DNA from: Dehalococcoidia bacterium
Lineage (GTDB): Bacteria > Chloroflexota > Dehalococcoidia > Plut-88900
DNA length: 64,000 nt
Direction: 5' to 3'
Assembly (NCBI GenBank): GCA_965197585.1
Contig: OZ240215.1
Span: 352,001 to 416,000 of the forward strand
Position 1 is the stretch's first letter. Each line of letters opens with the position of its first letter. The position numbers and the translations under genes were made by a program. Positions 1-39,735 of the stretch are shown here, piece after piece. The notes under the pieces were generated by a model that worked only from the letters and a program-made list of their open reading frames with translations, made no database searches and was not told the origin of the DNA.

Positions 1-494
1 TCCCACGTAACCTCTTCGGCGACATTGCCCACCAGGACCTGTCCCCAGTTGGTGTCGTTGCCCGCGTCGATGAGCCAGCGGCGCGGGTCGCCCGGCAGGG
101 TCTCCGCCATCGCCCGCCTTGCGGCGGCGTTGTCGGCGCAACCGATGATCAGGCTGTCGCCGTAGGCGGGCAGGCCGGGGTAACAGTTTCCGTGGGGGCG
201 TGTGTCACCCTCCCGGAACGGGTACACTGAGTAGCCGACGGGGCGCCGGAAGGCCCTGGCCAGCCGGTCGGCCAGGGCCTGGCTCTTGAATTTCCCGATG
301 TCCTCCGCGTAGAAGTTCTGGCGGAGCAGGTTGTGGGGCTCCACCCGGTCGTGGTCGACCAGGACGATGGTGGCCTCCCGCCCCTGGAAGAGGCGGCAGA
401 GGCCCTCGGCCACGAACCCGCCGGTGCCACCGCAGCCGACCACGGTGACCCACGGGTTGTCGAGCAGGAATGCGTTGTCCAGGTAGTAGGGCAT
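1..494 (-). CDS. ThiF/E1-like activating enzyme (PRTRC-type), 3' part runs off the window
   Basis: Not in the ORF track. Manual translation from ATG 494 (GGAGG SD upstream): MPYYLDNAFLLDNPWVTVVGCGGTGGFVAEGL...IVLVDHDRVEPHNLLRQNF...GKFKSQALA...IIGCADNAAAR...WLIDAGN, with GxGGxG, D-x-D-x-V-x-x-x-N-L-x-RQ and CxDN motifs. Confidence 0.92.
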   Translation of the reverse strand, partial: MPYYLDNAFLLDNPWVTVVGCGGTGGFVAEGLCRLFQGREATIVLVDHDRVEPHNLLRQNFYAEDIGKFKSQALADRLARAFRRPVGYSVYPFREGDTRPHGNCYPGLPAYGDSLIIGCADNAAARRAMAETLPGDPRRWLIDAGNDTNWGQVLVGNVAEEVTW

Positions 495-550
495 TGGCAG
501 TTACCTCCTTATGGTTCAGTAAGTGTTTTGCATCGATTCAGGCTCCTCGA

Positions 551-1150
551 CTATCTGCCGGACACTCCGATCCGGCCGGCTATCACCTGCGACCAGTCCA
601 CCGGGGCGAAGTGGCCGTAGACGCCCAGCCGGAGGCTCAGCTCGGGCCGGGGGGTATTGAGGCGTCCGACGACGCCGTAGATGCGGAAGCCCTGCTCGTC
701 CCGGTCGTCGGTATCAGAGAAGAACGCGCGGGAGGTTCCGTGAGAGTGGAACTCGGCGACCACCCCGGTGGGCGGCCGGTAGGTGAGGGATGTAGCGGTC
801 CCGGCCTGCGGGGGCACCACCAGCCGGTAAACCTGCCCGTCCCAGCGCACTGCGAAGAACCGCTCGGTGTCCGGGGCTATCCGGAACCAGCGTAGACCCA
901 GCTCTAAGACCTCAGCCGGGATCGGGCCGTGACCCAACACCACCTTCTCGGCCACGGGAGCGAGCCCCCGCACCTCGCAGGGGGCGACCAGAACCCGTGC
1001 CGCCAGATGGGGGCTCTCGGACTGGACGTAGACGCCTCCGGCTCCGAGCACGTAGTCATAGCCGATTCCCTGGACGCCGGAGAGTCCGGCGGGGTGGTTG
1101 ACCAGGTAGCCTACCGGCTCCGGTCTTGCCCTAGCGGTAGCGGTAGCCAA
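551..1150 (-). CDS. JAB/JAMM metallopeptidase (Prok-JAB, PRTRC protein A-like)
   Basis: Upstream E (DTERFFAV) plus EFHSHGTSRAFFSDTDDRDE (HxH...S..D) and RIYGVVGRL. Likely TTG start at 1150 after GAGGGGAG; the track start at 1231 overlaps the E2 gene. Confidence 0.9.
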   Translation of the reverse strand: MATATARARPEPVGYLVNHPAGLSGVQGIGYDYVLGAGGVYVQSESPHLAARVLVAPCEVRGLAPVAEKVVLGHGPIPAEVLELGLRWFRIAPDTERFFAVRWDGQVYRLVVPPQAGTATSLTYRPPTGVVAEFHSHGTSRAFFSDTDDRDEQGFRIYGVVGRLNTPRPELSLRLGVYGHFAPVDWSQVIAGRIGVSGR

Positions 1151-1841
1151 GTCTCCCCTCGGAGACTGCCATGGCGTGGGACACGGTACACTGGGGAACA
1201 AGGTCCTCGGTTGGGTACTCAGTCTTTCCATCGATTTCCTCCCATAGCGATAGCAGGTTAGCGGGGTGCTTCTTCGAGCGGTCCCGGGAGTCCCCGGTGA
1301 GCGAGAAGTAGGACTGGAAGAAGGACTCCGGTATCAGCCCCACCTCCTCGGGGAACCGGTGGCTTCCGGGGCAGACCCTCCCGTCCCCGAAGACGTTGAA
1401 GGCCGGGGCCCGGAAGAGCTGCTGCTCGGCGTCGCTGGGCCGGTCCTTTGCGGCGTAGACCAAGGGCGCCCGGCCCGGCGAGCAGATGAAGACCAGGCCG
1501 GGCATGGGGAGCCTGAGCCTTGCGGGAGGCTTGAACGCCTCCCGCTGCAGGGCCACCGGCCGCACCTGCGGCGGCCGCCAGAGGGCCACCACCTGCCCGG
1601 TCTCGCCCTGGTTCCACCAGAGGGTTGCCTCCGGCAGCAGCCCCGAGGAGAACCCCAGGTGCCGGGTGAACACGTTAGCGATCTCGTCCGCCGAGACGGT
1701 CCTGACCCAGGCGGAGTCGCCGTCGAAGCCCCTCAGCAGGATGGTCTCGCCGTACACCTCCAGCTGCAATTTGAGGTTGTCTTTAGGGGCGTCCGTGACG
1801 CCCGGCAGGGACCACCGGGTCGTGTCGGGTTCATTAGTCAT
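1131..1841 (-). CDS. Prokaryotic E2-like protein (Prok-E2_D / PRTRC protein B-like)
   Basis: LPMPGLVF...LFRAPAFNVFGDGRVCPG...FFQSYFS; N and C sit where the E2 active-site motif is expected. ATG at 1841 with GGGAGG SD. Confidence 0.85.
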   Translation of the reverse strand: MTNEPDTTRWSLPGVTDAPKDNLKLQLEVYGETILLRGFDGDSAWVRTVSADEIANVFTRHLGFSSGLLPEATLWWNQGETGQVVALWRPPQVRPVALQREAFKPPARLRLPMPGLVFICSPGRAPLVYAAKDRPSDAEQQLFRAPAFNVFGDGRVCPGSHRFPEEVGLIPESFFQSYFSLTGDSRDRSKKHPANLLSLWEEIDGKTEYPTEDLVPQCTVSHAMAVSEGRLGYRYR

Positions 1842-2676
1842 GGTCGTTGTCCTCCCTGTCTTGTTGTTGTTCGGATAGCCGCGCCAGAAGGAAGTCCAGC
1901 ATCTCGGCGAAGCGGCCGGGCAGGTCATCCTCCAGCCAGTCGGTCAACCGGCTCACCGCCTCCATGAGGGCCGTGGCCTTGCGCCACTCCTCCGTGCCCT
2001 CGGCGATGATGTCGTCGTCCCAGGGGTCGGCGAACCCGTCGTACATGCCATCGTCGTAAGAGTGGTCTAGGAAGAAGTTGCCGGTCTCGGCCCAGACCCA
2101 GGAGGCGGCCTTGGCCGCTCCCTCGAACTTTGTTTCCTTGAGCGTCTCGGTGAGGGTTTCGAGAGGTATGCCGTCCTGGGGAATCCTCTCCAGGGTCTCC
2201 TGCGGTATGCGCTCGGCGGCCGACTCAAGCCAGGCCACCCGCAGCCCGTCGGGTTCCTCGTAGTAGACGTCCGGGGGCTTGACCAGGAGGGCCATGGCCG
2301 AGAGCCCGTCCCGGTAGCCGTCCCACATCTCGTGGAGGCCGTCGTAGCCGAAGCCCATAAGCTCGAAGGGGATGCCCCTTCTCAGCCAGGACCAGGGAGG
2401 TTCGTCCCCTTCTTCCATGTACCAGTCGAAGAACGGGGCGTAGAGGGGGAAGTGGCGCTCCCCGAAGAGCTGACCGAAGCGCTCCACCCTTTTGGCTGCG
2501 TCGGGGCCGGCCAGCACCGACTCCGCGTCCCGGGGAAAGAGGCGGCGCACCAGCCCCGCGAACCAGGCGTAGTCGCCTGAGTATCCGACCAGCGTCACCA
2601 GCTCCCGCAGCGACGGCGGACGCCGCAGGAGCAGTTTTGCCAGGCCGTTCAGTAGCGGCGGGGCCGGAGCATGCAT
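1834..2676 (-). CDS. Hypothetical acidic helical protein (in the position of PRTRC protein F)
   Basis: 280-aa ORF with GC-rich codon usage, overlapping both neighbours in the Ub operon. Confidence 0.7.
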   Translation of the reverse strand: MHAPAPPLLNGLAKLLLRRPPSLRELVTLVGYSGDYAWFAGLVRRLFPRDAESVLAGPDAAKRVERFGQLFGERHFPLYAPFFDWYMEEGDEPPWSWLRRGIPFELMGFGYDGLHEMWDGYRDGLSAMALLVKPPDVYYEEPDGLRVAWLESAAERIPQETLERIPQDGIPLETLTETLKETKFEGAAKAASWVWAETGNFFLDHSYDDGMYDGFADPWDDDIIAEGTEEWRKATALMEAVSRLTDWLEDDLPGRFAEMLDFLLARLSEQQQDREDNDHD

Positions 2677-2879
2677 CTCAGGGCCTCCGCCATGCGGCCC
2701 GTGGCCGCGGCGTAGTCCTGCGCCTGGGCGCAGGCCATCTCCACGTCTGCCTGCCGTGCGGCCGCGGCGTCCAGGTCGAGGGAGCCGTCGGGCCGTGTGA
2801 GCTCCGCCGTGAGCTCAAGGATGCTGAGGTCTGCAGGTGGCGTTGCCGCCAGCAGGCCCGTAAGGGTGCGGGTGTCCAT
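2649..2879 (-). CDS. Small hypothetical protein in the Ub operon
   Basis: 76 aa, GAGGAGG SD, coupled to the downstream ORF. Confidence 0.65.
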   Translation of the reverse strand: MDTRTLTGLLAATPPADLSILELTAELTRPDGSLDLDAAAARQADVEMACAQAQDYAAATGRMAEALRCMLRPRRY

Positions 2880-2892
2880 CGGAGTCCCTCCT

Positions 2893-3099
2893 CTAGCTCT
2901 GGGCGTGGGTGAAGGCGCCCTTGGTGCCCACCCGCCGCTGGAACTCGTAGATGGTGTCTTCTCCCCTCTTGGTCTCCTTCACCGAGGCGTTGGCTATCTC
3001 CCCGTAGAAGTCGCTCAGGGTTGCCTTCACCTGGTCGACGCTCATCTGGGGGTCTGGGTCCGGGAACTCTCTGTCGGCGTATACGAAGATTCTTGCCAT
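2893..3099 (-). CDS. Prokaryotic ubiquitin-like protein (Prok_Ub / PRTRC protein C-like)
   Basis: RIFVY...FPDPDPQMSVDQVK...YGEIANA...YEFQRRVGTKG followed by a 7-aa extension; AAGGAG SD. Confidence 0.9.
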   Translation of the reverse strand: MARIFVYADREFPDPDPQMSVDQVKATLSDFYGEIANASVKETKRGEDTIYEFQRRVGTKGAFTHAQS

Positions 3100-3196
3100 C
3101 GTATTTCTCCTTTCGACTCGTTGCTGTCTCTCTGCGTTTCCATGTGCGGAGAGGCCGTTGCCTCATTGGCAACGGCCTCTGCCGTGCCTCTGCGGT

Positions 3197-5563
3197 CTAG
3201 CGTCCGGCGCCGACCGGCTCTTTCTCGCGCTGCTGTTCCTGCGTCATTGCCCACTCGAACATCGATAGGGTCTCGGACTGGGGTTTGCTCTTGCGGCCCC
3301 TGGACCCGACAGGTTCCTCGACCAGGAACTCCGCCCAGGAGAACAGCGATCCGCCACTGGCGGACGGCTCCGATGCCTTGTTGTCCTGATGGCCGTTGCC
3401 GTTGGCGCCATTTCCGTTTGCGGGTGCGTGCCGGTTGGCCGGGAACAAATCCACCGTCGGCCCGATGCCGATGGCGTCGTGGCGGCCGTTCCCGTTGACC
3501 AAGACCGTCTCCGGCTCGGCTTTGACGGCCTTCCACCCGTCGTCTACCAGGTACTCCTCCGAGTTGGTCTCGGCGTCCCTGGCTTTGGCAAAGACCTCCT
3601 CCACCGGCTCGGCCTCGTCCTCCCCGTCTCCGCTGACGATCCTGCGGGCCAGGGCCATCATCAGGTCGTCCCCGTCGTCGCCGTATGCGGCCAGGCCGTC
3701 CTCCGGCAGCTCGCCCTCCACCGCAAGCGATGATTGAAGCTTCTTGGCCACCAGCTTCAGGGCGTCGGCCTGCAGCGTGTTCCGGTAGGACATGAACACG
3801 ACTTTCACCGGGCGGGTCTGCCCGATGCGCCACGAACGGCGGGAAGCCTGCCGCATGACGTAGACGCTGTAATCCGTCTCGTACCAGCAGATGGTGGGGA
3901 AGTCGATGAGGTCGAGGCCGGTCTGCACCAGCCTGGGGTGGCAGATGAGGACGTCGATGCCCTGCTTCACCTTCTCCGCCACCCACGCTTCCCTGCGGTC
4001 CGGGGCCACGGCGTCTGCCTTCATCACCGCAACCCGGAACCCGTGCCGGGTGAGGATGGCGTCCATCCGCCCGGTGATGTCCCTGGTCCCCGTGTGGGTG
4101 GCGTAGACCAGCACCCTGCGGCCCTCCAGCCGTTCGGCGGCAACCAGGTCGACCAGCGCCTTCTCCTTCGGGTAGAGCCTCTCCTCGGACAGTGGCGGCA
4201 CCTGGACCAGGGGGTTGCCGGTCTGTGGGTCGAATACGGTCTCCCCCCTGGTGCAGCCGTCGGGGTAGGCCAGCAGGGTCTGCAGGTATGTGGACAGCAG
4301 CTTCTTGGAGCCCTTCTTGAGCGCATCGGCCAGGGCCTTGCGGAGCTTCTCGAACACCGCGACGTAGGCGCTGCGCTGGGAGTAGCCCGTGGAGTCCTCC
4401 TCGGAGTCCATGGAGGAGAGGAGGATCTGCTCGTCGTAGCCGGGCAGCCCCGATGCCACGTCGGAGAGACGGAGGAAAACCGAGTTGCCGATAAGGTGGA
4501 AGAGGGCGGCAGGGGCGAGGCCCGGCCTCTCCCTGGTCACCTTGCGGTAAGCCTTTCTCCTGCTGAACCTGCCGTCCTCCGTGGAGTCGTCGTCGGGCTT
4601 CCCCATGGAGTGTTCGAGGAACCCGTACCGCTGTATCCACCTTCCCTCCTCGGAGCGCCCGAACTCCGTCCTGATCTCCGGGCTGAACCGGTAGAGAAGG
4701 TGGAAGATGGTAGAGGAGTAGCCGCCGAGCAGCGTGCCCGTCAGGCTGAGGGACTTACCGCAGGCGTCGGCCAGGACCCCGGCGGCGATGCCCTGGGCCG
4801 AGCCCCGCCCCTTGTACTCGTGAATCTCGTCGCCGATGAGCAGGTCGAAGAAGCCCCTCATCCGGTGCTTCACGTAGTCGCTGAGGGGGTATCTCCTGGG
4901 CCCCGAGTTATCGGCCTGCCAGAGGGGAGAGCCGCAGCTCTCGCAGGTGAGCTTCCTGCGGCTCAGCCCTGCGTCGGTGAGGGGAACGCCGTCCTTGTCG
5001 ACGATCTGCGCCGTGCAGTCGGGGCAGCAGGGGACCCGGAAGGGCTCCCCCGTCTCCTCGTCCCGCACCAGCCTTCCCGCCGCCGAGGCCCACCTCTCTA
5101 CGACGGCGGCCTTCCACCGGTAGGAGAGCTTGGCCCGCTCCCTGGACATGATGGCGAAGAGGGGCCCGATGCCGGTTGAGAGGCGGAGCCGCCCCATGTC
5201 GGTGATGGAGGACACTATCGCCGCCCTTGCGAAGGGCACCGTCTCCTCCACCTCCCGCTTCCACTTCCGGGTCAGGTGGGGAGGGCAGAGGACCAGCACT
5301 CGCCTGAACCCCGCCATGTGGGCGGCCGCGGCCCCGATGAACGTCTTGCCGGTGCCCATCTCGCCGACCACGGTGGTGCCGCGGTGGGTCCTGAGGGAGA
5401 GGGCCGCGCCCCTGATGGCGTCCTCCTGGGCACCCAGGGGCGTGCGGAGCAACTGGGGAAGCCGTTGTCCGTTCTCCGAGGGCCTGTAGAGGGGAGGGTA
5501 TGACTCCACCACCCTTTGGGCGATGGCCTCCCTGTAGCTGTCGATGAACTCTCCTAGGTTCAT
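3197..5563 (-). CDS. SF2 (SNF2-like) helicase with inserted Zn ribbon
   Basis: Walker A GEMGTGKT, DEIH, LTGT, TGLDL, QASRRSWRIGQ; CPDC...CESC insertion. ATG 5563 with GAAGGAG SD. Confidence 0.9.
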   Translation of the reverse strand: MNLGEFIDSYREAIAQRVVESYPPLYRPSENGQRLPQLLRTPLGAQEDAIRGAALSLRTHRGTTVVGEMGTGKTFIGAAAAHMAGFRRVLVLCPPHLTRKWKREVEETVPFARAAIVSSITDMGRLRLSTGIGPLFAIMSRERAKLSYRWKAAVVERWASAAGRLVRDEETGEPFRVPCCPDCTAQIVDKDGVPLTDAGLSRRKLTCESCGSPLWQADNSGPRRYPLSDYVKHRMRGFFDLLIGDEIHEYKGRGSAQGIAAGVLADACGKSLSLTGTLLGGYSSTIFHLLYRFSPEIRTEFGRSEEGRWIQRYGFLEHSMGKPDDDSTEDGRFSRRKAYRKVTRERPGLAPAALFHLIGNSVFLRLSDVASGLPGYDEQILLSSMDSEEDSTGYSQRSAYVAVFEKLRKALADALKKGSKKLLSTYLQTLLAYPDGCTRGETVFDPQTGNPLVQVPPLSEERLYPKEKALVDLVAAERLEGRRVLVYATHTGTRDITGRMDAILTRHGFRVAVMKADAVAPDRREAWVAEKVKQGIDVLICHPRLVQTGLDLIDFPTICWYETDYSVYVMRQASRRSWRIGQTRPVKVVFMSYRNTLQADALKLVAKKLQSSLAVEGELPEDGLAAYGDDGDDLMMALARRIVSGDGEDEAEPVEEVFAKARDAETNSEEYLVDDGWKAVKAEPETVLVNGNGRHDAIGIGPTVDLFPANRHAPANGNGANGNGHQDNKASEPSASGGSLFSWAEFLVEEPVGSRGRKSKPQSETLSMFEWAMTQEQQREKEPVGAGR

Positions 5564-5835
5564 TCTGGCGTCTCCTTCCCTTTGATTGGCGGGGACGCCG
5601 GGACCCGGAACGCACCACGCCCCCCGGTGGGGACGTTTCCGAGCTTCGGGTTCCTGGAAGCGTCCCCAGGCGATTGCTTGAATGTGCGAGAACCGCGCGG
5701 TTGACGGGCCTCGTGAGTGTGGCTCGGTGCGAGCCGTCCATGCGGCCTGGCGGTCCGGTTCCGCGCCGTCCCTACGGGACAGGCGGGGCCGAGTACCGTT
5801 TTTGATGACCGGGCAGGGTCCCGTCTCGGTATTGG

Positions 5836-6081
5836 TCATGCCCCTTCCGCAGGGTAGAACTCCACCATGACGGGGTGGTTCAGGCAGTACCGGGTAACGC
5901 AGGCGCTGTGCGATCTCCCTTTGTATGCGTTGAGGTCGCAGTTCCCGGAGGACAGATCGACGTCGCAGAGTATCACTTCGCCGCCGTCCGTCTTGAACTC
6001 CGCTCTCCGAGCGAACGGGAGATACCCGAGGATCTCTCCCTTATGGATGCGTTCACCGTAGATTCTTCGTTGCGTAGTCAT
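5836..6081 (-). CDS. Small hypothetical protein
   Basis: MTTQRRIYG..., 81 aa, GAGGAG SD. Confidence 0.5.
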   Translation of the reverse strand: MTTQRRIYGERIHKGEILGYLPFARRAEFKTDGGEVILCDVDLSSGNCDLNAYKGRSHSACVTRYCLNHPVMVEFYPAEGA

Positions 6082-6187
6082 TGACTCTTCTCCTCTCGCT
6101 TGACATTGCCCTCCAAACCGGGAGGTGAGACAGGCAAGACGACTTGCCGGCAAGCCCTGCAGGGGTCGCGGCGTTTGGTCGCGGCGT

Positions 6188-6406
6188 CTAAGCGGCTTTC
6201 AGGGAGGCCCTGAGAGCGTCGATCTCGGCGCGGGACCGCGCCCTGGCGTCTTCGTAGCAGCGCCCCGTCAGGTGGTATGCGTTCACCGGGGAGGAGACCG
6301 CCCTGCCGCCCACGATGTCCACCGAGGCTGTCTGCATGGCCGGTTCGCCGGGGAGTAAGTGTTGCCCGCACCGGCAGCAGGGTTCGAGGGTCATGGTCGT
6401 CTGCAT
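6188..6406 (-). CDS. Small hypothetical protein, possible Zn-binding (CCxC...HxxxxC)
   Basis: 72 aa, GAGG SD. Confidence 0.55.
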   Translation of the reverse strand: MQTTMTLEPCCRCGQHLLPGEPAMQTASVDIVGGRAVSSPVNAYHLTGRCYEDARARSRAEIDALRASLKAA

Positions 6407-6551
6407 CTTCTTACCTCTCTTTCTTTATTGGACTGTTGCGTTGCGTCCGAAACAAAGCGAGGCCCCGCCGGTTCCCTGTAGAGGGACGACGGGGCTTCGT
6501 GGTTCTGCCTGTGCGTTGCACGCAGACTGGTGCGGCCCAGGGTGAGCCGGT

Positions 6552-7598
6552 CTAAGCTGCGATGTCGGCTATTTCGCCGTCATCCAGGTCGAGGGCCGTA
6601 ACGGTGGTGTTCAGCCGCTCGCGGTGGACTTCCTTTTGAGGCGTGTCCTCCACCAGGACCATCTCCTTGGAGGTGCGTCCCTTGACCAGGATGCGCCTGC
6701 CTTGGGCTTCAAGTACGAGGTTGTCCAGGAACCCCGCCGCCACCAGCATTGCCATGTGCCCCCTGCGGAGGGGCATGAGGGGCCGGGTGCGGTTATCCTT
6801 AGCAGGCCAGAGAGAGTCGGTGATTGCCTTGCTGACCCACAGCCCCGACGCCCGGGCCTCCCTGGCGGCCGCCACGGGATCCACAAGGCGTGTGGCGAAG
6901 AGAATGTCGCCCGCTGCTGTTATGGAGGGTGAGTAGACCGGGTAGTCATCGGCGTACAGCTCCTCGGGCTCACCCTGGGCCCACTCCCTGACCCTGGACT
7001 CGGCGTAGGTGTTGGGGGATGGGTCCGCCTTCCGGTACGCCATCAACACGACCTGGTCGAAGACCTCCCTCTCGGGACTGGGGAAGGCCCAGCAGCGGAG
7101 ATTGCCGTAGTGGGTGGCCAGGTAGCGGGCCGATACAGCCAGCCGCGACCTGGGCACTATGAAGACCAGGAGGCCGTCCTCGGCCAGGTAGCGGGTGCAG
7201 TGGGTGAGGAAGCGGTGCTCCACCCTCCTCTCGTCGCCGGAGTCCCAGTCGTAAGGAGGATTGAGGTAGAGGAGGCCGAAGGCCCCGTTGGCCATGGAGG
7301 TGTTGAAGAGGTCGCAGGCGAGGGCGTGGTCCAGGCGGGCCCCGGCTTCCTCGGCCCGGTCCTTGTGCAGTTCTACTCCGAAGGTCTCGATGGGCACGGG
7401 GACGGATGAGTTGCCCGCCATGGCCTCGGCCAGCCGGGACACGGCCTCCCCGGCTCCGCAGCAGGGGTCGAGGATGCGCAGGGCCTTCCCCCTGCTGTAG
7501 TAGGAAAGCCTAGGCGTCTCCACCAGGGTGGCCAGCATGTCCACCACCCGGTCGGGGGTGGGATAGAAGCCCCCCTTGGCCTGTGCTGCCAGTCTCAT
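6552..7598 (-). CDS. SAM-dependent DNA amino-methyltransferase (m6A/m4C; DUF6094-like)
   Basis: GFYPTP, ILDPCCGAG (motif I), GVEL, LNPPY (motif IV). ATG 7598 with AAGGAG SD. Confidence 0.88.
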   Translation of the reverse strand: MRLAAQAKGGFYPTPDRVVDMLATLVETPRLSYYSRGKALRILDPCCGAGEAVSRLAEAMAGNSSVPVPIETFGVELHKDRAEEAGARLDHALACDLFNTSMANGAFGLLYLNPPYDWDSGDERRVEHRFLTHCTRYLAEDGLLVFIVPRSRLAVSARYLATHYGNLRCWAFPSPEREVFDQVVLMAYRKADPSPNTYAESRVREWAQGEPEELYADDYPVYSPSITAAGDILFATRLVDPVAAAREARASGLWVSKAITDSLWPAKDNRTRPLMPLRRGHMAMLVAAGFLDNLVLEAQGRRILVKGRTSKEMVLVEDTPQKEVHRERLNTTVTALDLDDGEIADIAA

Positions 7599-7984
7599 GT
7601 CGTATCTCCTTTCTCTTTCGTGTCGATGCCCCGCACCTCGCCCGTGGCAAGGGTGGCGTGGAAACAGAGTTCCTCGTCTATCCTCTTGCCTTCGGCGCAG
7701 TAGGTGCAGAGGGCCGTTGAGATCGCGGTTTCCGGTGCGGCGACGACCCGCCGGACCAACGTGAAGCCGCCCCGGGGGAGGTCGCACCTGTAGAGTGGAA
7801 CCGTCCGGTCCCTGACGTCCCCTTCCGTCGCTTTCTCGTAGAAATGGGGTTGGCCGAACTCGCAGGTGTGACTGTAGGGGCCGTGAAGGCAGAGGAGGCA
7901 GACCTCGCCGTCCAGGCAGTAACGCCGCCAGGCCCTGTTCTCCTCCTCGCTCCACTGCTCGGCGGTTTTGAGGGAGCTATCCAT
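7595..7984 (-). CDS. Cys-rich hypothetical protein
   Basis: 129 aa with CLLC and CTYC; overlaps both neighbours. Confidence 0.6.
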   Translation of the reverse strand: MDSSLKTAEQWSEEENRAWRRYCLDGEVCLLCLHGPYSHTCEFGQPHFYEKATEGDVRDRTVPLYRCDLPRGGFTLVRRVVAAPETAISTALCTYCAEGKRIDEELCFHATLATGEVRGIDTKEKGDTT

Positions 7985-8615
7985 CGTAGGGTTCCTCCTT
8001 TAGGGCGAGAGTTCCCATGGCCACGGCGTCCGACAGGTCGTACCGGAGCTTCTCCGAGTTGGGGCAGCAGACCCAGGCCGATATCCCGGAGGACTGGAGG
8101 GGTGCGATCTCGCCGTTGCGCAGCCCCCGGCGCCAGAGCCAGGGGGCCCAGGAGCGGTGCAGGGGCAGGGGGCTGCGCCGGTCCAGGAACCGGTGGTGCA
8201 GGGCTGGGGCATCCTCCGTGGAGCGGGCCAGCAGGAGAAAGTCGTCCCGCTCGAAGGAGTACTCCGCCAGTCTCGTGTAGACCATCGCGTGCCAACCGCC
8301 CGTGGTGGGAAGACGGGATATCTTGGTGGTCCAGGTGCCGATGGTCTGGTTGGGTATGGAGCAGCGGAGGTAGTCCCCGGTGAGCTCCCCTCCGTCCACA
8401 CCCCGAATGACGTGGGCCGCCTCGGGGGGCTGCTTGAGCAGGGAGGCCCAGATGGCCTTCAGGGCGGTCTGGGGACCGACCATGGAGAGGAACCAGAGCT
8501 CGCGGCTGTCGGGGTTGCGGGCGAAGGCGTCGGCGGTGGCGGAGAACCCGGCGGCGGATACGGTGTACAGCTCACCGGGGTTCACGGGCTCGGTCACGGT
8601 TTGTGTTGTGGCCAT
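7977..8615 (-). CDS. Hypothetical protein in the methylase operon
   Basis: 212 aa, AAGGAGG SD, coding-like codon usage. Confidence 0.75.
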   Translation of the reverse strand: MATTQTVTEPVNPGELYTVSAAGFSATADAFARNPDSRELWFLSMVGPQTALKAIWASLLKQPPEAAHVIRGVDGGELTGDYLRCSIPNQTIGTWTTKISRLPTTGGWHAMVYTRLAEYSFERDDFLLLARSTEDAPALHHRFLDRRSPLPLHRSWAPWLWRRGLRNGEIAPLQSSGISAWVCCPNSEKLRYDLSDAVAMGTLALKEEPYDG

Positions 8616-8657
8616 GTCGGCCTCCTTTCTTATTCTCAGTGGGCGATATGGAAGCCA

Positions 8658-9167
8658 TTACACGGGAAAGCAGCCCAGCTCCTTGAGGCTTACGGCCTTG
8701 TCGTGTCCGATGACCACGTGGTCCAGCAGGTCGATGTCCAGCATCTTCGCCGCCCGGTAGAGGTCGCCGGTGAGGGCCCTGTCCTGGGAGCTGGGGGTGG
8801 GATCGCCGCTGGGGTGGTTATGGACCAGGATGAAGTGGGGCGCGGACTCGGCCACGGCGGGGCGCAGCACCTCGGCGGGCCTTACCACTACCGAATTAAC
8901 GTTGCCCTGGTAGACCACCCGCTGGCCCATGACCCGGTTCTTCACGTCCAACAGCAGCACCCTGAGTTGCTCCTGGGCCAGGGGCGTCATCTCGGGGCCC
9001 AGGAGGCGGTACACGTCCTCGGGACAAGTGATGGTCGGGGCGTCATCGTTGTGCTGGGGCCGGGTGTCGACCTGGTAGCGTACGGCCAGCTCGGACAGCA
9101 GGCCCAGGTTGCTCCTCAGGGCCTCCAGCAGGGAGGCGTTGTTTGCGATGTTCTTCTTGTCGGCCAT
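8658..9167 (-). CDS. radC: RadC-family JAB-domain protein
   Basis: QEQLRVLLLD...HNHPSGDPTPSSQD...LLDHVVIG. Confidence 0.93.
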   Translation of the reverse strand: MADKKNIANNASLLEALRSNLGLLSELAVRYQVDTRPQHNDDAPTITCPEDVYRLLGPEMTPLAQEQLRVLLLDVKNRVMGQRVVYQGNVNSVVVRPAEVLRPAVAESAPHFILVHNHPSGDPTPSSQDRALTGDLYRAAKMLDIDLLDHVVIGHDKAVSLKELGCFPV

Positions 9168-9212
9168 GTTGTTTCTCCTGTATGGGTCTGAATAGGCAGG
9201 GAAAGAAAACGA

Positions 9213-10580: not shown

Positions 10581-11366
10581 CTAGGCCGCCTTCTGCTCCT
10601 GCTGTCTCTCCTTAAGCTTGCGGGCGGCACTCTTCACCAGGGGTTCCAGCTCGTCCACGGTGAGCTCCTCAAGCCCTTTGCCCGTCCGGCTCTTAGTGGC
10701 CTCCCTCACCTGCTCCTCCCCGAACCCCTGCTCGGCCCCCAGGTTGATGAGACCCGTCCTCAGGGCCTCAAGCTGGGACACGGGGGGATCTTCACCCTGG
10801 CTCTGACCAGGGCGGTTGTCCGCTACTTCTTTCACGGCAACCGCCTTTGCCGGGTCGCCGTAGAGAGCGTTCCCGAACTGGTCGCCGAAGCTCCTGAGCG
10901 CCCTCTTGAGAGCGTCAGTGACTGCTCCCTTGTATGCGGTCTCGTGGTCATCGATGGTCTCCCCGTTCACGGCGTGGAACCCCACGTCGGTGCGGGAGGG
11001 GGCGCCAGGGACGTCAACCCTGACCGTGGCGGCGTAGGCGTGGGAGGTCCTCACGTCTCCGGTCTCGGCGTTTATCATCTGGGCGTCCCGGAGGTTCACA
11101 CCACCCACCACCTCGTAGCCCCAACCCCCGTGTCCGAATATCCGGTTGGCCTGGGCGATGGCGGTGTGGCCTTCCAGGTAGGAGTAGGTGCGGTTCTTCC
11201 GGCCTGTGCGGCGTGACACAAGGGAGGGGTCGAGGGGCTGGGACAGCTCCTTGGTCACCCGTGGTGGCAGGCTGTCCCAGAGAAGGTCCAGTTCCCCGTC
11301 GCCCAATGGGGCGGCGTCGGGCCGGGCGCCGTTGTTCGTACCGTTCCTGTGCGTTCCGTTCGTCAT
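10581..11366 (-). CDS. Rad52/Rad22-family single-strand annealing protein
   Basis: SYLEGHTAIAQANRIFGHGGW...DVGF...AYKGAVTDALKRALRSFGDQFGNALY. Confidence 0.92.
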   Translation of the reverse strand: MTNGTHRNGTNNGARPDAAPLGDGELDLLWDSLPPRVTKELSQPLDPSLVSRRTGRKNRTYSYLEGHTAIAQANRIFGHGGWGYEVVGGVNLRDAQMINAETGDVRTSHAYAATVRVDVPGAPSRTDVGFHAVNGETIDDHETAYKGAVTDALKRALRSFGDQFGNALYGDPAKAVAVKEVADNRPGQSQGEDPPVSQLEALRTGLINLGAEQGFGEEQVREATKSRTGKGLEELTVDELEPLVKSAARKLKERQQEQKAA

Positions 11367-11646: not shown

Positions 11647-12711
11647 CTACCGGGCAGCTTGTGCCGCCTTCTCAAGCAAGCGCAGGAACAGGTCCCTTCC
11701 GGTGGCAAGGGAAGCAAGCTCGGCCACGTCGTCCATGCCCCTGGGCAAGACTACGGCGGCGGCCCTGGAGCCCAGCAAGTACGCAAGGCGGGCCGTTGCC
11801 TCCCTGCCCGCATCGTCGGCGTCGAAGGCGAGGAAGACCTGGGGGCAGCCCATGAGTGCCCCGGCGACCCGTTCCAGGCCCCGTGTGCCCAGGGCGGCAC
11901 AGGCGGGGATGCCCCAGTGGGCAAGGACAAGCCAGTCGACAAGACCCTCGGTGAGGACGACCCACCGGGGAGCCCGTCCCAGTCTTCCCAGGCCGAGCAC
12001 CGGCTTGGGGCCGGGCGGCGCCTGGAACCGGGGTACGGCGCCTGGTTCGAGAGCCCTTCCTCCAAGCCAGCGGACAAGTCCGTCGCCCGTATCGGGTACG
12101 ACGATCATGCCTGCGAACCGCTCGGTGTTCCTGCCCAGGAACAGGCCCGAGTCCCGCAGGCTCTCCTCTCCGAAACCTGCAAGCTCAAGGTGGCGGCGAA
12201 GCCCGCCGCCCGGGGCGTAGCCGACGCCAAGCCGCAGGGCTTCGTGCAGGCCGATGCCCCTGAACGCAAGGTATCCCCGCCCCTCGGGGTGACGCATAAG
12301 CTCCCGGGTGTAGAACCGGGCCGCCGCCGTCAGCAGGCCCGGGTCCCGGGGTGGGAGTTGGAGTTGCCGGGAGCTCCCGGCCCCAGGGCTCCGTGTGGGT
12401 CGCTTGGCGGCGGAAGGGTTGGCGGGGTGAGGGGCGCCGTCCAGCCGCCGTATCGCCTCGGGCAGGCTCAGGCCCTCGACCCTCTGCACGAAGTCCAGGA
12501 CGTCTCCCCCGGCGCCGCAGCCGAAGCAGTAGAACCTCTCCGAGTCGCCGTACACAGTGAAGCTGCCCTCGCCCTCCTCGTGGAAGGGACAGACGCCCTG
12601 TCGAACCCGGCCCCTGCCCCGGAGCCTCACTCCCGACTCCTCCACGACGACGACCAGCGAGTACCGGGCCTTGAGAGCCGGGATGTCCACGGGAGCAGTG
12701 GCTAGGACCAT
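11647..12711 (-). CDS. DnaG-type DNA primase (CHC2 Zn finger + TOPRIM)
   Basis: CPFH...SFTV...FYCFGCGAGGDV; LTEGLVD; AFDADDAG. Confidence 0.93.
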   Translation of the reverse strand: MVLATAPVDIPALKARYSLVVVVEESGVRLRGRGRVRQGVCPFHEEGEGSFTVYGDSERFYCFGCGAGGDVLDFVQRVEGLSLPEAIRRLDGAPHPANPSAAKRPTRSPGAGSSRQLQLPPRDPGLLTAAARFYTRELMRHPEGRGYLAFRGIGLHEALRLGVGYAPGGGLRRHLELAGFGEESLRDSGLFLGRNTERFAGMIVVPDTGDGLVRWLGGRALEPGAVPRFQAPPGPKPVLGLGRLGRAPRWVVLTEGLVDWLVLAHWGIPACAALGTRGLERVAGALMGCPQVFLAFDADDAGREATARLAYLLGSRAAAVVLPRGMDDVAELASLATGRDLFLRLLEKAAQAAR

Positions 12712-13175
12712 GACCCGCCTCCCTTCCCCAGATTTCTGAGGCCCCGGAGGCTGCCCCTGGAGACCACCTTGCCGGGGAGCCAGCGCATCCCAATGACAGC
12801 CACCACTTCTAGTATGGCGTTCTCCCGGGAGACCAGGGCCGCAGCCCGGCCTGCGCCGGGGCTGTAGACCAGGACCCCCTTCTTCCCGAACCGGCGCCGC
12901 ACCAGGTCCACCCACTCGGAGTAAGCCCAGCAGGCGTCCCTCACGGGAGCGTTGGGGGTATCCACCTCGGACATCACGGACAGGGCCCCGTCCAGGTCCG
13001 CGGCCTTCCTCAACCTCCGAGCATCGTGGACGCTCTTCGCCACCGTCGGCGCCGGCACAGCGCTCTCTTCTTCCCGCACCCCGAACAGGGCCTCGATCAC
13101 CCTGTCCACCAGCTCTTCCAGGCTGTGCCGGGTACCCACTGCCCCACCGTTCATCGTTATCGCCTGCGTTGTCAT
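12702..13175 (-). CDS. Hypothetical protein
   Basis: 157 aa, AAGGAG SD, overlaps the primase start. Confidence 0.65.
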   Translation of the reverse strand: MTTQAITMNGGAVGTRHSLEELVDRVIEALFGVREEESAVPAPTVAKSVHDARRLRKAADLDGALSVMSEVDTPNAPVRDACWAYSEWVDLVRRRFGKKGVLVYSPGAGRAAALVSRENAILEVVAVIGMRWLPGKVVSRGSLRGLRNLGKGGGSWS

Positions 13176-19285: not shown

Positions 19286-21541
19286 TTGAAAACCGTATTT
19301 GAAAAACTCAGCCGGATGATTCTCAGGCCCGGGAAAACGGGGGCCACTGCGGCCCCGAAGAAGAATGCCGCCCCGCCCAAGCCGCCCGTCCCCTTGCCAT
19401 CGTTCTACATGCTGTCCCACCTGGAGGAGGATGGTCCCGTGAGGCTCGACGGGGTCAAGCTGGGCATCTGCGAGGTGATGGGCCTGGAACTGGACGAGCC
19501 CCGGCTCGGCTCCTTCGCGGGGGCCCTGAACGCCCTGGACTTCCCGGTGCAGCTTCTAGTAAGGCAGCACCCGCCGGTGCTGGACCGGCTGAGGGATGCC
19601 CTAAAGGAAGCCCAGCCTGAAGACCTGCCGCCGAAGACCGAACAAGCCGCAAGTTCCCTCAGGGGCCTGCTCAGGGAACTCGAGACCCGGGAGGGGGTGC
19701 TGGACCGGCGGTTCTACGTTGTATGCAAACACGATAGGGCCGACGACTTGGCATCCCTACTCTCGCGGGTCGGCCTCTTCGTCCAGCCTCTCAGTGGCCG
19801 GACCCTCAGGATGTTCATCCTCGCATGCGCACTTGGCGGCTCTCCCAGGGACATGGACGAGACCGAGCAGGTGAGTGTGGAGATCAATCGCCGGGAGCTT
19901 CGAATCGGCCCCGGGCTCACCCGCTCCCTCCACCTGGGCCGCTGGCCCCGCACCCTTGTTCCCGGGTTCCTGCAGGCCCTCATGAACTCGGGCATCCCCA
20001 TGGACTTGTCCGTCCACCTTGCCCCAATCGCAGCCGACCAGGCGGCCCGCACACTGGAGTGGCAGAAGGTGCGGTTCGAGTCGGCCCGATCCATGTCCTT
20101 CCGCAAGGGCCGCAGCCTCTCCCCGGAGGCGGAGATAGCCCTGGAGGACGTCACCCGCCTCAGGGACGACGTTCAGCGGGGCCGGGAGCGTCTCTTCCAC
20201 TCTTCCCTTTCCCTGACTCTTCATGCAGACGATCACAAGAGCTTGAAGGAGATGACCCAGAGGACCAGGGCCCACTTTGCCGCCACGTTGGGCAAGCTGG
20301 ACGTCCTCCCCTTCCGCCAGAGGGAGGGGCTCCTGTCGACCCTGCCCCTAAACCTCAACTCCGTTGCGCTCTGGAGGACCCTGGACACCTCCTCCCTGGC
20401 CCGGCTGTTTCCCTTCTCTCCCCCCGACATGGACACCCGCAGCGGCACCCTCTATGGCCTGGACCTCAGGGCCCGGGCGCCCATCGTCTACGACCCCTGG
20501 GACGGCACCCACCTCAACGCCAACACCGCTGTCCTGGCCCGCTCGGGCAGCGGAAAGTCCTTCGCCACCAAGCTGGGCGTGTTGCGGGGTATATGCCGCG
20601 GAATAACGGCCTACGTCATCGACCCCGAGGGAGAGTATGCCGACATGGCCAGGGCCGCGGGGGGCAGGGTGCTGTCGCCGGGAGTACCGGGCCAGGGCAT
20701 GAACCCCTTCGTCATGGACCGGAGGGACTCGGAGGAGTTGCTCCAGCGCATCGGCAGCCTGAGGAGGCTGATAGAGGTGATGGTGGGGGAGAAGCTCGGT
20801 GCTGAGCGGCGCGCGGACCTGGACCACGCCCTGGCCGGCTACTACGCCGAACCCCGGGAGCGCACCGGGTTCCGGGACTTCTACGGCTACCTGCAGAGCG
20901 GGGAGAACGACGACTCGGAACTCGATTCGGGGCAGGCCCTGGCCAGGCTGCTGAGGCCCTTCGCCACGGGTAGCCTCCGCCACCTCCTGTCAGATGAGGG
21001 GGACGACCTGCTCCACAACGAGGCTCTCGTTACCGTGTTCGACCTGAGGCTCCTTGAGCCCGAGCTCCGGCCCGCCGCCGCCATGGTCTGCACCGAGACG
21101 GTGTGGGCCTCCGCCGCCCGGGACCCCAAGCCGAGGCTGCTGGTTGTGGACGAGGTGTGGTCGATCATGCAGCACCCCGAGGGGGCTGCGTTCATGGTCT
21201 CTATGGCCAAGAGGGCCCGGAAGCACCGGCTGGGACTCCAGTTCATAACCCAGGACGTCCAGGACCTGCTCAGCGAGGACACCTCCCGCACCATCACCGG
21301 CCACTCGGGAAGGGCCCTGCTGCAGAACGCCGCCTTCAAGCTGCTGCTCCAGCAGGACGCCGCGGCCATATCCACGGTGGGGGAGGCCTTCGACCTGCCC
21401 CAGGACCTTCAGAAGTGGCTTCTCTCCTGCCCCAGGGGCGACGGGCTGCTCCTGGCCAGGGGAAACCGGTTCCCGGTGCGCATCGAGGCCACGCCGGAGG
21501 AGGCGGAGATCATCGAGTGGAGGCCGGGAGCCCACGCCTAG
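19286..21541 (+). CDS. virB4: VirB4-like conjugative ATPase
   Basis: NANTAVLARSGSGKS, VIDPEGEY, LLVVDEVW, KRARKH, ITQD. Confidence 0.92.
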   Translation: MKTVFEKLSRMILRPGKTGATAAPKKNAAPPKPPVPLPSFYMLSHLEEDGPVRLDGVKLGICEVMGLELDEPRLGSFAGALNALDFPVQLLVRQHPPVLDRLRDALKEAQPEDLPPKTEQAASSLRGLLRELETREGVLDRRFYVVCKHDRADDLASLLSRVGLFVQPLSGRTLRMFILACALGGSPRDMDETEQVSVEINRRELRIGPGLTRSLHLGRWPRTLVPGFLQALMNSGIPMDLSVHLAPIAADQAARTLEWQKVRFESARSMSFRKGRSLSPEAEIALEDVTRLRDDVQRGRERLFHSSLSLTLHADDHKSLKEMTQRTRAHFAATLGKLDVLPFRQREGLLSTLPLNLNSVALWRTLDTSSLARLFPFSPPDMDTRSGTLYGLDLRARAPIVYDPWDGTHLNANTAVLARSGSGKSFATKLGVLRGICRGITAYVIDPEGEYADMARAAGGRVLSPGVPGQGMNPFVMDRRDSEELLQRIGSLRRLIEVMVGEKLGAERRADLDHALAGYYAEPRERTGFRDFYGYLQSGENDDSELDSGQALARLLRPFATGSLRHLLSDEGDDLLHNEALVTVFDLRLLEPELRPAAAMVCTETVWASAARDPKPRLLVVDEVWSIMQHPEGAAFMVSMAKRARKHRLGLQFITQDVQDLLSEDTSRTITGHSGRALLQNAAFKLLLQQDAAAISTVGEAFDLPQDLQKWLLSCPRGDGLLLARGNRFPVRIEATPEEAEIIEWRPGAHA

Positions 21542-24235: not shown

Positions 24236-25893
24236 CGCCCGCAGGGTGCACCGGAGAGCTGCTGCGCCGCCTGGCCGCCATGCCCTTCCTGGACCGGCTG
24301 GAGATGGTGGCCGTCTCCGGCTGGTCCAGGGGGGCCGTATACCCCGCCGTCGAGTCCCTGGAGCGCAACAGGCTGGTGGCCTCCGTACCCCACGCATCGG
24401 ACCTCGTTCCGCCAGCCCGAAGGTTCCACCTCACGGTTCCCGGCCTGTACCGGCTTGCGAGGGAGGAAGGCATGACCGTGGACGGGCTCCTTGCCGCCTA
24501 TCCCCTCTCCGCGCAGTGGCAGCGGCTGCTGATGGAGCGCCTGGACGCCGTGGCCGTCATCTACCGGCTCGTCTGTATGGTCTCCGACGTCGCCCACCCC
24601 ATACGCTTCCGCTGGTTCAGGGCCCTGCCCATGGACGCGGCGGTGGGACTTCCCGACGGGCGGGTGGTCTCCATAGTCAGGCAGGGCCCCACCTCCGACA
24701 GGACGGCCTTCGCCAAGCGCCTCTGGCGGCTGGGGAAGGGTCCCCGGCCTAGCGCCGTCCTCATCCTGGCGCCGGACGGGGTCCGTCTCAGGCATGCCCG
24801 CAGGCTGATGATGGGATCTCCCTCCCTTGCGTTCCTAGCCCCGGAATCCACCGCGGTCTCCGGCACTGCCGTATCCCGGGTGTGGCGCACCCCCTCGGGG
24901 TCCTCCCTCCTGGACCTGCGCACCGCCCTCTCGCTCACGCAGCGGCGGGGAGAATGGCCCCTGGAAGGGTCTCCGGCGCGGGCCCACCTCCCGGAGAACA
25001 TCGTACTGGATGCCCCGGGGGAATCGCTGCCTGACTGGACGCTGCCCGCAGTGCTCAAGTCCGCCGAGAAGCGGGCCCTGGACCTGCTTTCCGACTGGCC
25101 CTGGGTCTCGCCCACTCACATGGGGATACTGCTGGGGGTGAGGCGGTCCATGCTCTCCCGGGTCCTGGTACGGCTCTGCGGACTGGGACTGGTCACGGGT
25201 TCCGACGTTGTCGGGAGCAGTCTCCTGGCGGTCACGGACCGGGGCCTGGCGCTGCTGGCCCGCCGGGACCGTTCCGCCGTGGGTGCTGCCAGGCGGCGGT
25301 GGAGCCCGGCTCTCCAAGACCCGGACGGCCCCATCCAGTGGCGCAACGTCACCGGCAGGAGAAGCCGCCAGCTGCTGAGGAACCTGGAGCACACCTCGGC
25401 GGTCCACTGGTTCATGGCGGTGCTGTCCAGGCAGGCCCGCTCCAGGTCGAGGGAGGTGGTCCAGCTCGACCCCCCCAGGAGGGCATCGAGATACTTCCGT
25501 CACGGAGACAAGCTGCGCTCCATACACCCCGACGCCTTCGGCGTCCTGCGCCGGGACGGCAAGACCTCGCCGTTCTTCCTGGAGTGGGAGCGGCGAGCTG
25601 TACGCCCGGCCACCATGGCCGACCGCATCGCACCCTACCTGCGCTACTACTCCTCCCGCCGGCCCACCGACGACCATGGGGCGCGGCCCGCCGTGCTGGT
25701 GGTCTTCGAATCGGACCTGGCGGCCACTCACTTCCTGCGCATTGCATCTCAGGAGATGAATCGGGTGGGGGTGGACATCCCACTGTATGTCTCCCACAAG
25801 AGCCTGTTGGAGAGGGTGGGTCCCCTGGGGAAGGCCTGGAGAGGGGTGGACGGGACTGGGCCGGGCTACGCTTTTCAGATGAGTTCTACCTAG
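24232..25893 (+). CDS. Replication-relaxation (Replic_Relax-like) protein, putative relaxase, two tandem domains
   Basis: wHTH-like segment plus TDRG, LEHT, IHPDAFG...FFLEWER; ATGA-coupled to virD4. Confidence 0.78.
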   Translation: MTPAGCTGELLRRLAAMPFLDRLEMVAVSGWSRGAVYPAVESLERNRLVASVPHASDLVPPARRFHLTVPGLYRLAREEGMTVDGLLAAYPLSAQWQRLLMERLDAVAVIYRLVCMVSDVAHPIRFRWFRALPMDAAVGLPDGRVVSIVRQGPTSDRTAFAKRLWRLGKGPRPSAVLILAPDGVRLRHARRLMMGSPSLAFLAPESTAVSGTAVSRVWRTPSGSSLLDLRTALSLTQRRGEWPLEGSPARAHLPENIVLDAPGESLPDWTLPAVLKSAEKRALDLLSDWPWVSPTHMGILLGVRRSMLSRVLVRLCGLGLVTGSDVVGSSLLAVTDRGLALLARRDRSAVGAARRRWSPALQDPDGPIQWRNVTGRRSRQLLRNLEHTSAVHWFMAVLSRQARSRSREVVQLDPPRRASRYFRHGDKLRSIHPDAFGVLRRDGKTSPFFLEWERRAVRPATMADRIAPYLRYYSSRRPTDDHGARPAVLVVFESDLAATHFLRIASQEMNRVGVDIPLYVSHKSLLERVGPLGKAWRGVDGTGPGYAFQMSST

Positions 25894-29972: not shown

Positions 29973-30000
29973 ACGAAGATGCAGAGTGGAGATTGAACCG

Positions 30001-35190: not shown

Positions 35191-35214
35191 TGCTTGCTCC
35201 CTATCTCTGTTCGG

Positions 35215-36828: not shown

Positions 36829-36867
36829 CTGGAGACCTCCCGGTTTTCTAAAGGTTGGTAGAATGCG

Positions 36868-37284
36868 CTATCTGCCGCTCAACCCGTGGTATTCGATGAA
36901 CCTCGTGGGCTTCACCCGAATCGTCGCCGACTCCGCATTATCCGGGCGATCTCCCAAGTACTTGTTCGCCCCCTCTTCCCCCAGGTACGCCGTGGCAATT
37001 CCTTTTATGGTGGCCACTGAGTGTACCGTCTCCAGCCGAGCGATTCCCCGCACCATCACCGCGTAGTAGGGAGTCTCCCTCTGGTCGAACACCAGCATCA
37101 CGTTCTCGTTGTTCTGGATGTTCTTGTACTTCTGGGACCCCAGGCCCGTGGACATGACGAATTCGCCGTCCTCATACAGGCACCACATGGGTATCGAATG
37201 TGGCCTGCCCTTGGTGTCGACGGTCGATAGCACCCCCACCTGCACTTTCTTCAGAAACTCCTCAATGTGTTCCGATGGCTGCAT
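36868..37284 (-). CDS. Pyridoxamine 5'-phosphate oxidase-like (probably F420-binding) protein
   Basis: GVLSTVDTKGRPHSIPMW...SQKYKNIQNNENV. Confidence 0.85.
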   Translation of the reverse strand: MQPSEHIEEFLKKVQVGVLSTVDTKGRPHSIPMWCLYEDGEFVMSTGLGSQKYKNIQNNENVMLVFDQRETPYYAVMVRGIARLETVHSVATIKGIATAYLGEEGANKYLGDRPDNAESATIRVKPTRFIEYHGLSGR

Positions 37285-37333
37285 GCTTGATTGCTCTCTT
37301 TCTCTTGGTTGTGTGGCCTATTGCGGCGAAAGG

Positions 37334-38467: not shown

Positions 38468-38495
38468 TTCACCTCCCAAATACCTGGCTCCCTAG

Positions 38496-39629: not shown

Positions 39630-39735
39630 GTCGCCCACTCCTTCCTCCATACGTCCATCGACCCCACCCTAGCCTACGCCGATTGTACCAGCCCGCAAAC
39701 CCAACGTGCTAAAATCGCTGCGTGGAGCAACTTCC

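Follow-up and report, generated by a model that had tools for sequence, protein, structure and literature searches.

Why does a small ubiquitin-like protein (Ubl) of a bacterial operon continue for seven residues past the glycine that is predicted to be its reactive end? The gene lies near the start of the window, the 64,000-nucleotide stretch of a Dehalococcoidia genome that was analysed here. The initial annotation had proposed a pro-form whose tail is removed by the JAB protease encoded in the same gene cluster.

The Ubl gene and its product

The gene and the two C-terminal parts of its product are located as follows.

2893..3099, minus strand: Ubl (PRTRC_C / Prok_Ub), 68 aa, putative precursor (open reading frame, TIGR03738, PF14454)
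2917..2946, minus strand: C-terminal arm EFQRRVGTKG, codons 52-61, ending in Gly61 (conservation, dN = 0)
2896..2916, minus strand: seven-residue tail AFTHAQS, codons 62-68, predicted propeptide (low conservation, dN/dS)

The open reading frame 3099..2893 (minus strand) translates to MARIFVY...EFQRRVGTKGAFTHAQS and closes with a TAG stop at 2895..2893. The interval 2925..2893 of the same strand begins with the codons of T59-K60-G61 and also takes in the tail (seven codons, 2916..2896) and the stop codon, and the translation confirms the ending RRVGTKG-AFTHAQS given in the initial annotation. Residues 2-61 align to positions 6-66 of the 66-position profile TIGR03738 (PRTRC_C) with 47.6 bits, a narrow pass of its cut-off of 45.95; the profile PF14454 (Prok_Ub) is matched with 54.1 bits (cut-off 25). 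G61 is the final position of both profiles, and G58, K60 and G61 are invariant in two alignments of the family (A1 and A4).

An AlphaFold2 model based on 37 sequences (mean pLDDT 77.5, residues 59-66 below pLDDT 50) has the order beta-beta-alpha-beta-beta, as in a beta-grasp fold, with strands at residues 3-7, 10-13, 39-45 and 48-54 and a helix at residues 21-31. A Foldseek search of the PDB with this model gave no match at E<=0.001. The top matches are weak (best E 0.098, TM 0.45-0.57) and mostly ubiquitin; 8tyz_B, a chain of a bacterial E1-E2-Ubl complex, is also among them.

The cassette and its mobile element

On the minus strand the genes follow each other 5' to 3' as SNF2 helicase, Ubl, p76, p280, E2, JAB and E1. 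The neighbours of the Ubl gene are listed in this order.

3197..5839, minus strand: SNF2-type helicase, directly upstream of Ubl (Helicase_C, ResIII; Pfam)
2887..2892, minus strand: AGGAGG ribosome-binding site of p76, read from the sequence, directly after the Ubl stop
2649..2879, minus strand: p76, 76 aa (open reading frame), homologous to the domain fused C-terminal to the Ubl in relatives
1834..2676, minus strand: p280, 280 aa (open reading frame), positional match to the 'novel alpha-helical protein' of Iyer type 6d
1131..1928, minus strand: E2-like protein (Prok-E2_D / PRTRC_B), start codon uncertain (PF14460, TIGR03737)
551..1231, minus strand: JAB/JAMM metalloprotease (Prok-JAB / PRTRC_A), predicted processing enzyme (PF14464, TIGR03735)
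3..494, minus strand: E1-like ThiF adenylyltransferase, truncated at the edge of the window (PF00899, TIGR03736)

The E2-like protein matches PF14460 with 73.4 bits and the JAB protein PF14464 with 29.3 bits. The best NCBIfam matches of the neighbours are PRTRC_B (TIGR03737, 66.4 bits, cut-off 131.45), PRTRC_A (TIGR03735, 58.7 bits, cut-off 101.8) and PRTRC ThiF (TIGR03736, 78.3 bits for the protein cut by the window edge, cut-off 144.75), all three below the curated cut-offs. In the genome the full E1 open reading frame comprises 271 aa (L004:7679-8494). The Cys of the motif GRVCPG in E2 aligns with the Cys of annotated PRTRC_B proteins from Azospira and Ralstonia plasmids. The longest open reading frames of E2 and JAB overlap by about 100 nt (window 1131-1231), and a database form of JAB with 199 aa (P0267) implies a later start than that of the frame 551..1231. 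For the family of p280, matches to Pfam or NCBIfam are lacking even at E<=10; its assignment to the helical protein of type 6d is by position only.

The gene order is the same as in annotated plasmid PRTRC cassettes, which have PRTRC protein E and ParB where the SNF2 helicase is located here; PRTRC stands for 'ParB-related, ThiF-related cassette'. Neither PRTRC_E nor PRTRC ParB was detected with NCBIfam among the 11 proteins of window 1-9200 or in the protein beyond E1; the element outside this range was scanned with Pfam only. A Ubl, a JAB, an E1-like protein, an E2-like protein and p280 in one cluster constitute the component set of Iyer type 6d. Profile matches and gene content mark the 68-aa protein as the modifier of a Ubl-E2-JAB-E1 cassette, of the kind called type 6d by Iyer 2006 and known as the core of 'PRTRC'.

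The genome (3.43 Mb, one contig) holds three paralogous cassettes with the order SNF2-Ubl-p76-p280-E2-JAB-E1. Their Ubl genes are found at the following positions of G000:C1.

354896-355099: Ubl copy of L004
793124-793324: Ubl copy of L005
2634215-2634412: Ubl copy of L006

Several related metagenome-assembled genomes (MAGs) likewise have more than one copy of the cassette. A 175-aa acidic protein ending in ...LRLF (L004:6662-7189, minus strand) is encoded downstream of E1, just outside the window. It recurs, conserved, after the E1 gene of each of the three cassettes, and neither Pfam nor NCBIfam gives a match to it.

On the other side of the helicase the window contains genes of a mobile element and, further on, a gene of a different kind.

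8658-9167: RadC
10581-11366: Rad52-like protein
11647-12915: DnaG-type primase
19286-21541: VirB4/TraC-like ATPase
21620-24235: coupling protein
24232-25893: relaxase-like protein
29986-31635: large serine recombinase
39706-41151: selenocysteine synthase SelA

A TSCPD protein is also encoded within the region 8658-31635. The genes from RadC to the recombinase, among them those for the relaxase-like protein, the coupling protein and the recombinase, place the cassette on an integrative conjugative element. Past the recombinase, window 33613-41151 holds chromosomal-looking genes (amine oxidase, amidohydrolases, SelA), so that the right end of the element is probably near 31.7-33 kb. A very long open reading frame of 2264 aa is found at window 53927-60721 (minus strand).

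The tail in the clade of the window

Among the 120 close homologues listed (of 391 found), 119 have GT[KR]G, in most cases GTKG, followed by 4 to 56 residues, and none ends at the glycine. The sole exception among the 120, P0119, is a sequence without the GT[KR]G motif. Considering the 117 close homologues with a full body, the tail comprises 7 residues in 61, 10 residues in 29 and 4-6 residues in 13 sequences, while 14 have longer tails.

The same picture is obtained from genomes. A scan with the small alignment A2 gave 316 matches, of which the best 80 were kept as loci. All 80 are from Dehalococcoidia MAGs, one of them labelled SAR202, and many are complete chromosomes. In these best 80 of 316 the motif GT[KR]G is kept without exception and is always followed by a tail of 4-10 residues (7 residues in 69 loci), with 53 distinct tails. 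The SNF2 helicase adjoins the Ubl gene in all 80 loci, and p76 and the rest of the operon are kept downstream of it in 79; p280, itself retained in 79 loci, is present in distant cassettes too. Within the genome of the window, the three Ubl copies have bodies that are 86-90% identical and tails of equal length, AFTHAQS, ASTCARN and ACTCAPN. An invariant GTKG followed by variable tails is what the initial annotation had predicted for an alignment of homologues. It had also named the opposite outcome, close homologues that stop at TKG, which occurs in 0 of 119 homologues and 0 of 80 loci. The tail as a recent loss of a stop codon is thus ruled out by the close homologues together with the 80 tailed genome loci.

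We note that no tail is shorter than four residues. This says little about selection on length, as just one of the 63 possible single-base changes in the tail of the window creates a stop and the sequences are related to each other.

Evolution of the tail

The conservation of the protein falls sharply after Gly61. Across the 117 close homologues the consensus frequency is 0.99-1.00 at all ten positions of the arm EFQRRVGTKG (52-61), compared to 21-82% at the tail positions; the mean is 0.89 for the body and 0.50 for the tail. Only the first tail position stands out, with Ala at +1 in 92 of the 117 sequences and in 82% of those whose tail has 7 or more residues. All other tail positions have a consensus of 21-65%.

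Rates of substitution were estimated from 71 coding sequences by pooled Nei-Gojobori counts. For the body we obtain dN/dS = 0.136 (dS 0.34) and for the tail dN/dS = 1.005 (dS 0.31), whereas the last ten body codons have dN = 0 at a dS of 0.089; these are point estimates without confidence interval, as in pooled pairwise counts related sequences enter many times and the pairs are not independent. By these estimates the tail is evolving neutrally, its sequence being under no selection. A role of the tail-coding DNA at the level of RNA was considered as well, and no sign of it is found. The similar dS of tail and body indicates that there is no extra constraint on the nucleotides of the tail, and the ribosome-binding site of p76 is located after the stop.

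Ends of the domain across the wider family

The ends of the domain in the wider family depend on the sample. Clusters at 50% identity gave 375 matches, of which 150 representatives were listed, 141 of them with a complete end of the domain. In these 141, the protein stops at the glycine in 7, continues for 1-3 residues in 14, for 4-19 residues in 24 and for at least 20 residues in 96, with the reservation that representatives are perhaps the longest members of their clusters, in which case long tails are over-counted. GTKG is found in 123 of the 141. Among seven annotated PRTRC_C genes (out of ten plasmid matches), four end at the glycine (Azospira, Sulfuricystis, Aromatoleum, Ralstonia) and three are extended by 9, 57 and 72 aa (Caballeronia, Azonexus, Polaromonas, respectively). 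Finally, in 51 metagenome loci analysed of 56 found with P0143, the glycine is followed by nothing in 18, by 1-19 aa in 13, by an in-frame p76-like fusion in 17 and by other long extensions in 3. The share of members that end at the glycine hence ranges from 0% to 57%. The statement in the initial annotation that PRTRC_C proteins usually end at TKG is accurate for some lineages only: such ends are seen in 4 of the 7 plasmid genes, in 18 of the 51 loci from metagenomes and in 7 of the 141 representatives, and in the clade of the window in 0 of 119 and 0 of 80.

Tandem Ubl arrays make up 11 of the 150 listed representatives, and those with regular spacing have GTKG at each junction. Ten proteins (P0123, P0128, P0134, P0145, P0160, P0207, P0208, P0219, P0224 and P0234) resemble polyubiquitin, with 3-7 Prok_Ub repeats that each end in G-[TS]-K-G and are joined by 1-6 linker residues. 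A metagenome scan with one of them, the tandem-Ubl protein P0123, returned no relatives. Cys-rich extensions after GTKG were noticed in P0149, P0156, P0182, P0187, P0222, P0240 and P0249 as well as in the loci L129 and L132; by eye they are zinc ribbon-like and constitute a second class of fusion partner.

The Ubl family thus shows free-Gly, tailed, fused and tandem forms around one invariant glycine, within orthologous cassettes. From fusions and arrays, a free glycine can arise only by cleavage.

The neighbouring gene p76

A frequent partner in the fused forms is represented in the window by a gene of its own. The p76 family has no Pfam or NCBIfam matches even at E<=10. In BLASTP searches, p76 is similar to the C-terminal extensions of two proteins, P0143 (43% identity, E 3e-16) and P0127 (E 3e-7). 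Of 93 long tails, 29 contain the domain as judged with a profile built from p76. Fusions of Ubl and p76 are located inside orthologous operons, with p280, E2, JAB and E1 downstream (L094, L096, L103 and L108). In the 79 genome loci that keep a separate p76, the gene starts 4-14 nt past the Ubl stop in 78 and 166 nt past it in one (L044), and it occurs in all three frames relative to Ubl. Its ribosome-binding site is conserved as AGGAG across the three copies of this genome.

A programmed frameshift or read-through from Ubl into p76 was considered and is ruled out by the occurrence of all three relative frames and the variable spacing. With p76 in any frame and the Ubl closed by its own stop, both are genuinely separate genes that involve no recoding. 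The seven-residue tail occupies the position of the linker of the Ubl-p76 fusions in orthologous cassettes, and on this alignment of positions it may be what is left of the junction in a Ubl-p76 polyprotein. In annotated betaproteobacterial PRTRC cassettes, too, protein C is separated from the next large gene by an unnamed gene of about 75 aa, in the place where p76 is found here (L087 7213-7449, L088 7196-7423, L092 608-832); by eye these are unlike p76.

The JAB protease and a model of its complex

In an alignment of 31 homologues (numbering of the 199-aa protein P0267), residues His135, Ser136, His137, Ser145 and Asp148 of JAB are invariant and Glu96 is conserved to at least 90%. The spacing H-x-H-x7-S-x2-D corresponds to the JAMM pattern. 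By this comparison the JAB of the operon keeps an intact JAMM motif.

The complex of JAB, the 68-aa Ubl and zinc was predicted with an ipSAE of 0.88-0.89 over three runs (0.89 versus 0.00 for the best of three controls); of 157 solved complexes 116 attain the mark applied, as do 2 of 215 mismatched pairs, a calibration that is only rough for a model with its own alignments and a zinc riding along, and one that may recall solved JAMM-ubiquitin complexes. The runs share at least 86% of contacts, with a partner pLDDT of at least 87. In the predicted interface, Ubl residues 55-63 lie against JAB residues 96, 135, 137, 145 and 148. The model supports a binding mode like that of deubiquitinases, short of showing cleavage.

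JAB is also found in cassettes whose Ubl already ends at the glycine (Azospira, Ralstonia), so its presence alone does not imply a role in maturation. Since it is kept there, JAB may also reverse conjugation.

Comparison with known systems

The types 6C and 6E correspond to Type II Bil and Bub, respectively (PMC10557695, PMC11601596). [quoted passage not shown] The cassette of the window shares with Type II Bil (CEHH/6C) an invariant glycine followed by few non-conserved residues, a cut before a small residue (here predicted as Gly61|Ala62) and a JAMM gene between E2 and E1, in the order Ubl-E2-JAB-E1. It differs in its Prok_Ub and Prok-E2_D proteins and in a short single-domain ThiF protein, whereas BilD has tandem adenylation domains. 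Unlike in Bil, p76 and p280 are located between Ubl and E2, and the cassette is part of a conjugative element and not of a defence island.

In Bub, the pre-protein BubAB is cleaved after G229, and the protease is the JAB domain of BubCD (PMC11601596). Type I Bub (6E) resembles the Ubl-p76 fusions of relatives, as in both cases a Ubl is fused at a conserved glycine to a protein of the operon, in Bub to be freed by a JAMM protease. The fusion partner of Bub is an E2 and the chemistry that of an oxyester, whereas the partner here is a 76-aa domain that is a separate gene in the window.

The type to which the cassette belongs was defined by Iyer 2006, where JAB was predicted both to process the Ubl of such operons and to take it off its targets (PMC1779556). 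The window matches this description in its small Ubl with a conserved C-terminal glycine, its E1-like protein, a JAB that has an extra domain at the N-terminus, the Cys conserved in the E2-like protein and, by position, the divergent helical protein (PMC1779556). In the parts of the paper considered here, the glycine of type 6d is placed at the carboxyl terminus, and tails, Ubl fusions and the p76 gene are not mentioned (PMC1779556). Likewise, the available parts of PMC10557695, PMC11601596 and PMC11601603 yielded no treatment of 6d/PRTRC.

The short tails, the fusion to an unrelated small protein and the head-to-tail arrays of the family are also reminiscent of eukaryotic ubiquitin, a likeness in logic and not one of shown descent. 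Eukaryotic precursors built around the reactive glycine comprise polyubiquitin, fusions of ubiquitin with ribosomal proteins, and the tails of SUMO and NEDD8. In eukaryotes the processing is mostly the work of cysteine proteases.

Interpretation of the tail

The 68-aa protein is probably a pro-Ubl that is trimmed by JAB; we infer both the cleavage and the enzyme. In this scheme the Ubl would be translated with seven residues past its reactive Gly61, and the tail would have to come off before E1 could adenylate the glycine. Most likely, the RRVGTKG arm is bound in the zinc site of the operon's JAMM protease, which cuts the Gly61-Ala62 bond; the Ubl so released would be passed on to E1 and E2 and be conjugated through Gly61. 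The processing is probably constitutive and not a regulated switch. To the complete explanation, namely a pro-Ubl of a mobile cassette whose tail is cut after Gly61 constitutively by the JAB of the operon, we assign a probability of roughly 0.7. Concerning the claim of the initial annotation that the co-encoded JAB clips the tail, the JAMM motif, the complex model and the precedent of Bil and Bub all fit JAB as the enzyme, while the clipping itself stays a prediction.

The initial annotation had gone further and proposed a protease-gated switch. A regulatory lock of this kind, in which controlled clipping by JAB licenses conjugation only under some condition, appears unlikely to us. A length sufficient for masking could be selected, as tails of fewer than four residues are seen in 0 of the 117 close homologues and 0 of the 80 loci, and Ala is kept at +1 in 92 of 117; we have noted above how little the missing short tails say, given the scarcity of single-base routes to a stop and the relatedness of the sequences. 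JAB is encoded downstream of Ubl in the same operon of closely spaced or overlapping genes, so both should be made together, the sequence of the tail is neutral, and orthologous cassettes work without any tail. With Ubl and JAB in one operon and a tail that holds no conserved information, constitutive maturation is the simpler account, and the switch finds no support. A neutral tail would also be expected if the tail stayed on the protein as a disordered end that does no harm. The Ubl would then be a non-covalent partner or carrier without conjugation through Gly61, a reading with which the low model confidence of this end also agrees, and a mechanistic paper on PRTRC/6d that would speak to it was not found in the literature search. 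We nevertheless hold this to be quite improbable. The ten-residue arm that leads up to the tail and ends in Gly61 is invariant, E1, the Cys of E2 and an intact JAMM site are all kept in the cassette, and tandem arrays as well as Ubl-domain fusions with GTKG junctions are hard to explain without cleavage.

If the tail does come off, the enzyme might still be a protease or carboxypeptidase of the host, with JAB only taking the Ubl off its targets. JAB must indeed have a role besides maturation where it is kept next to a Ubl that ends at the glycine. Yet the cassette is mobile across phyla, from plasmids of Betaproteobacteria to Dehalococcoidia, which favours a self-contained system, the JABs of Bil and Bub do both jobs or maturation, and the complex model puts the Gly61-Ala62 region on the JAMM residues; a host enzyme has only a small chance of being the answer. 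Least credible of all is an artefact, be it a sequencing error, a stop codon lost recently or a p76 fusion by frameshift or read-through of which the tail is the beginning. Some metagenomic records do have long tails that read other downstream frames or p76 (P0006, P0121). Against this stand the genome loci, all 80 of which, including many on complete chromosomes, have a tail of 4-10 aa and a stop, the agreement in tail length of three copies in one genome, and the p76 genes in all three relative frames, which leave no conserved frameshift or read-through. Barring a systematic error that the assemblies have in common at this position, these data refute an artefact.

Implications

Conjugation of bacterial Ubls has been shown for CBASS, Bil and Bub. 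For the 6d/PRTRC type, which is found on plasmids and integrative conjugative elements, the literature searched at the level of listings yielded no experimental study, be it a cleavage experiment, a proteomic datum or a paper on the processing or mechanism of PRTRC_C. As pre-processing of bacterial Ubls by JAB is already established, trimming of the tail by the JAB of the operon would leave the general picture unchanged, and it is what one expects of a ubiquitin-like modifier. The most useful additions are the measure of neutrality of the tail, the range of free-Gly, tailed, fused and tandem forms, and p76 as a frequent fusion partner. The latter is a small conserved partner gene that is 'hypothetical' in current annotation.

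A more far-reaching version, which we offer tentatively and rate as rather unlikely, is that Ubl and p76 are the halves of an ancestral polyprotein from which JAB frees both, much like the eukaryotic fusions of ubiquitin with ribosomal proteins, that the gene has since been split in lineages such as the present one, and that the system serves conjugative transfer. If this were true, cleavage by JAB would release a conjugatable Ubl together with a stoichiometric helical partner, p76, which would work with E2 or p280 in the choice of targets. Retention of a stub of at least four residues would then reflect either a requirement of JAB for residues at its primed side or the need to bar the capped form from adenylation; in the latter variant there would be no adenylation until the conjugative element becomes active. 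The cassette would then be a self-contained Ubl modification system for conjugative transfer, acting for example on proteins of the element or the host upon entry, and processing of the precursor would be its first committed step.
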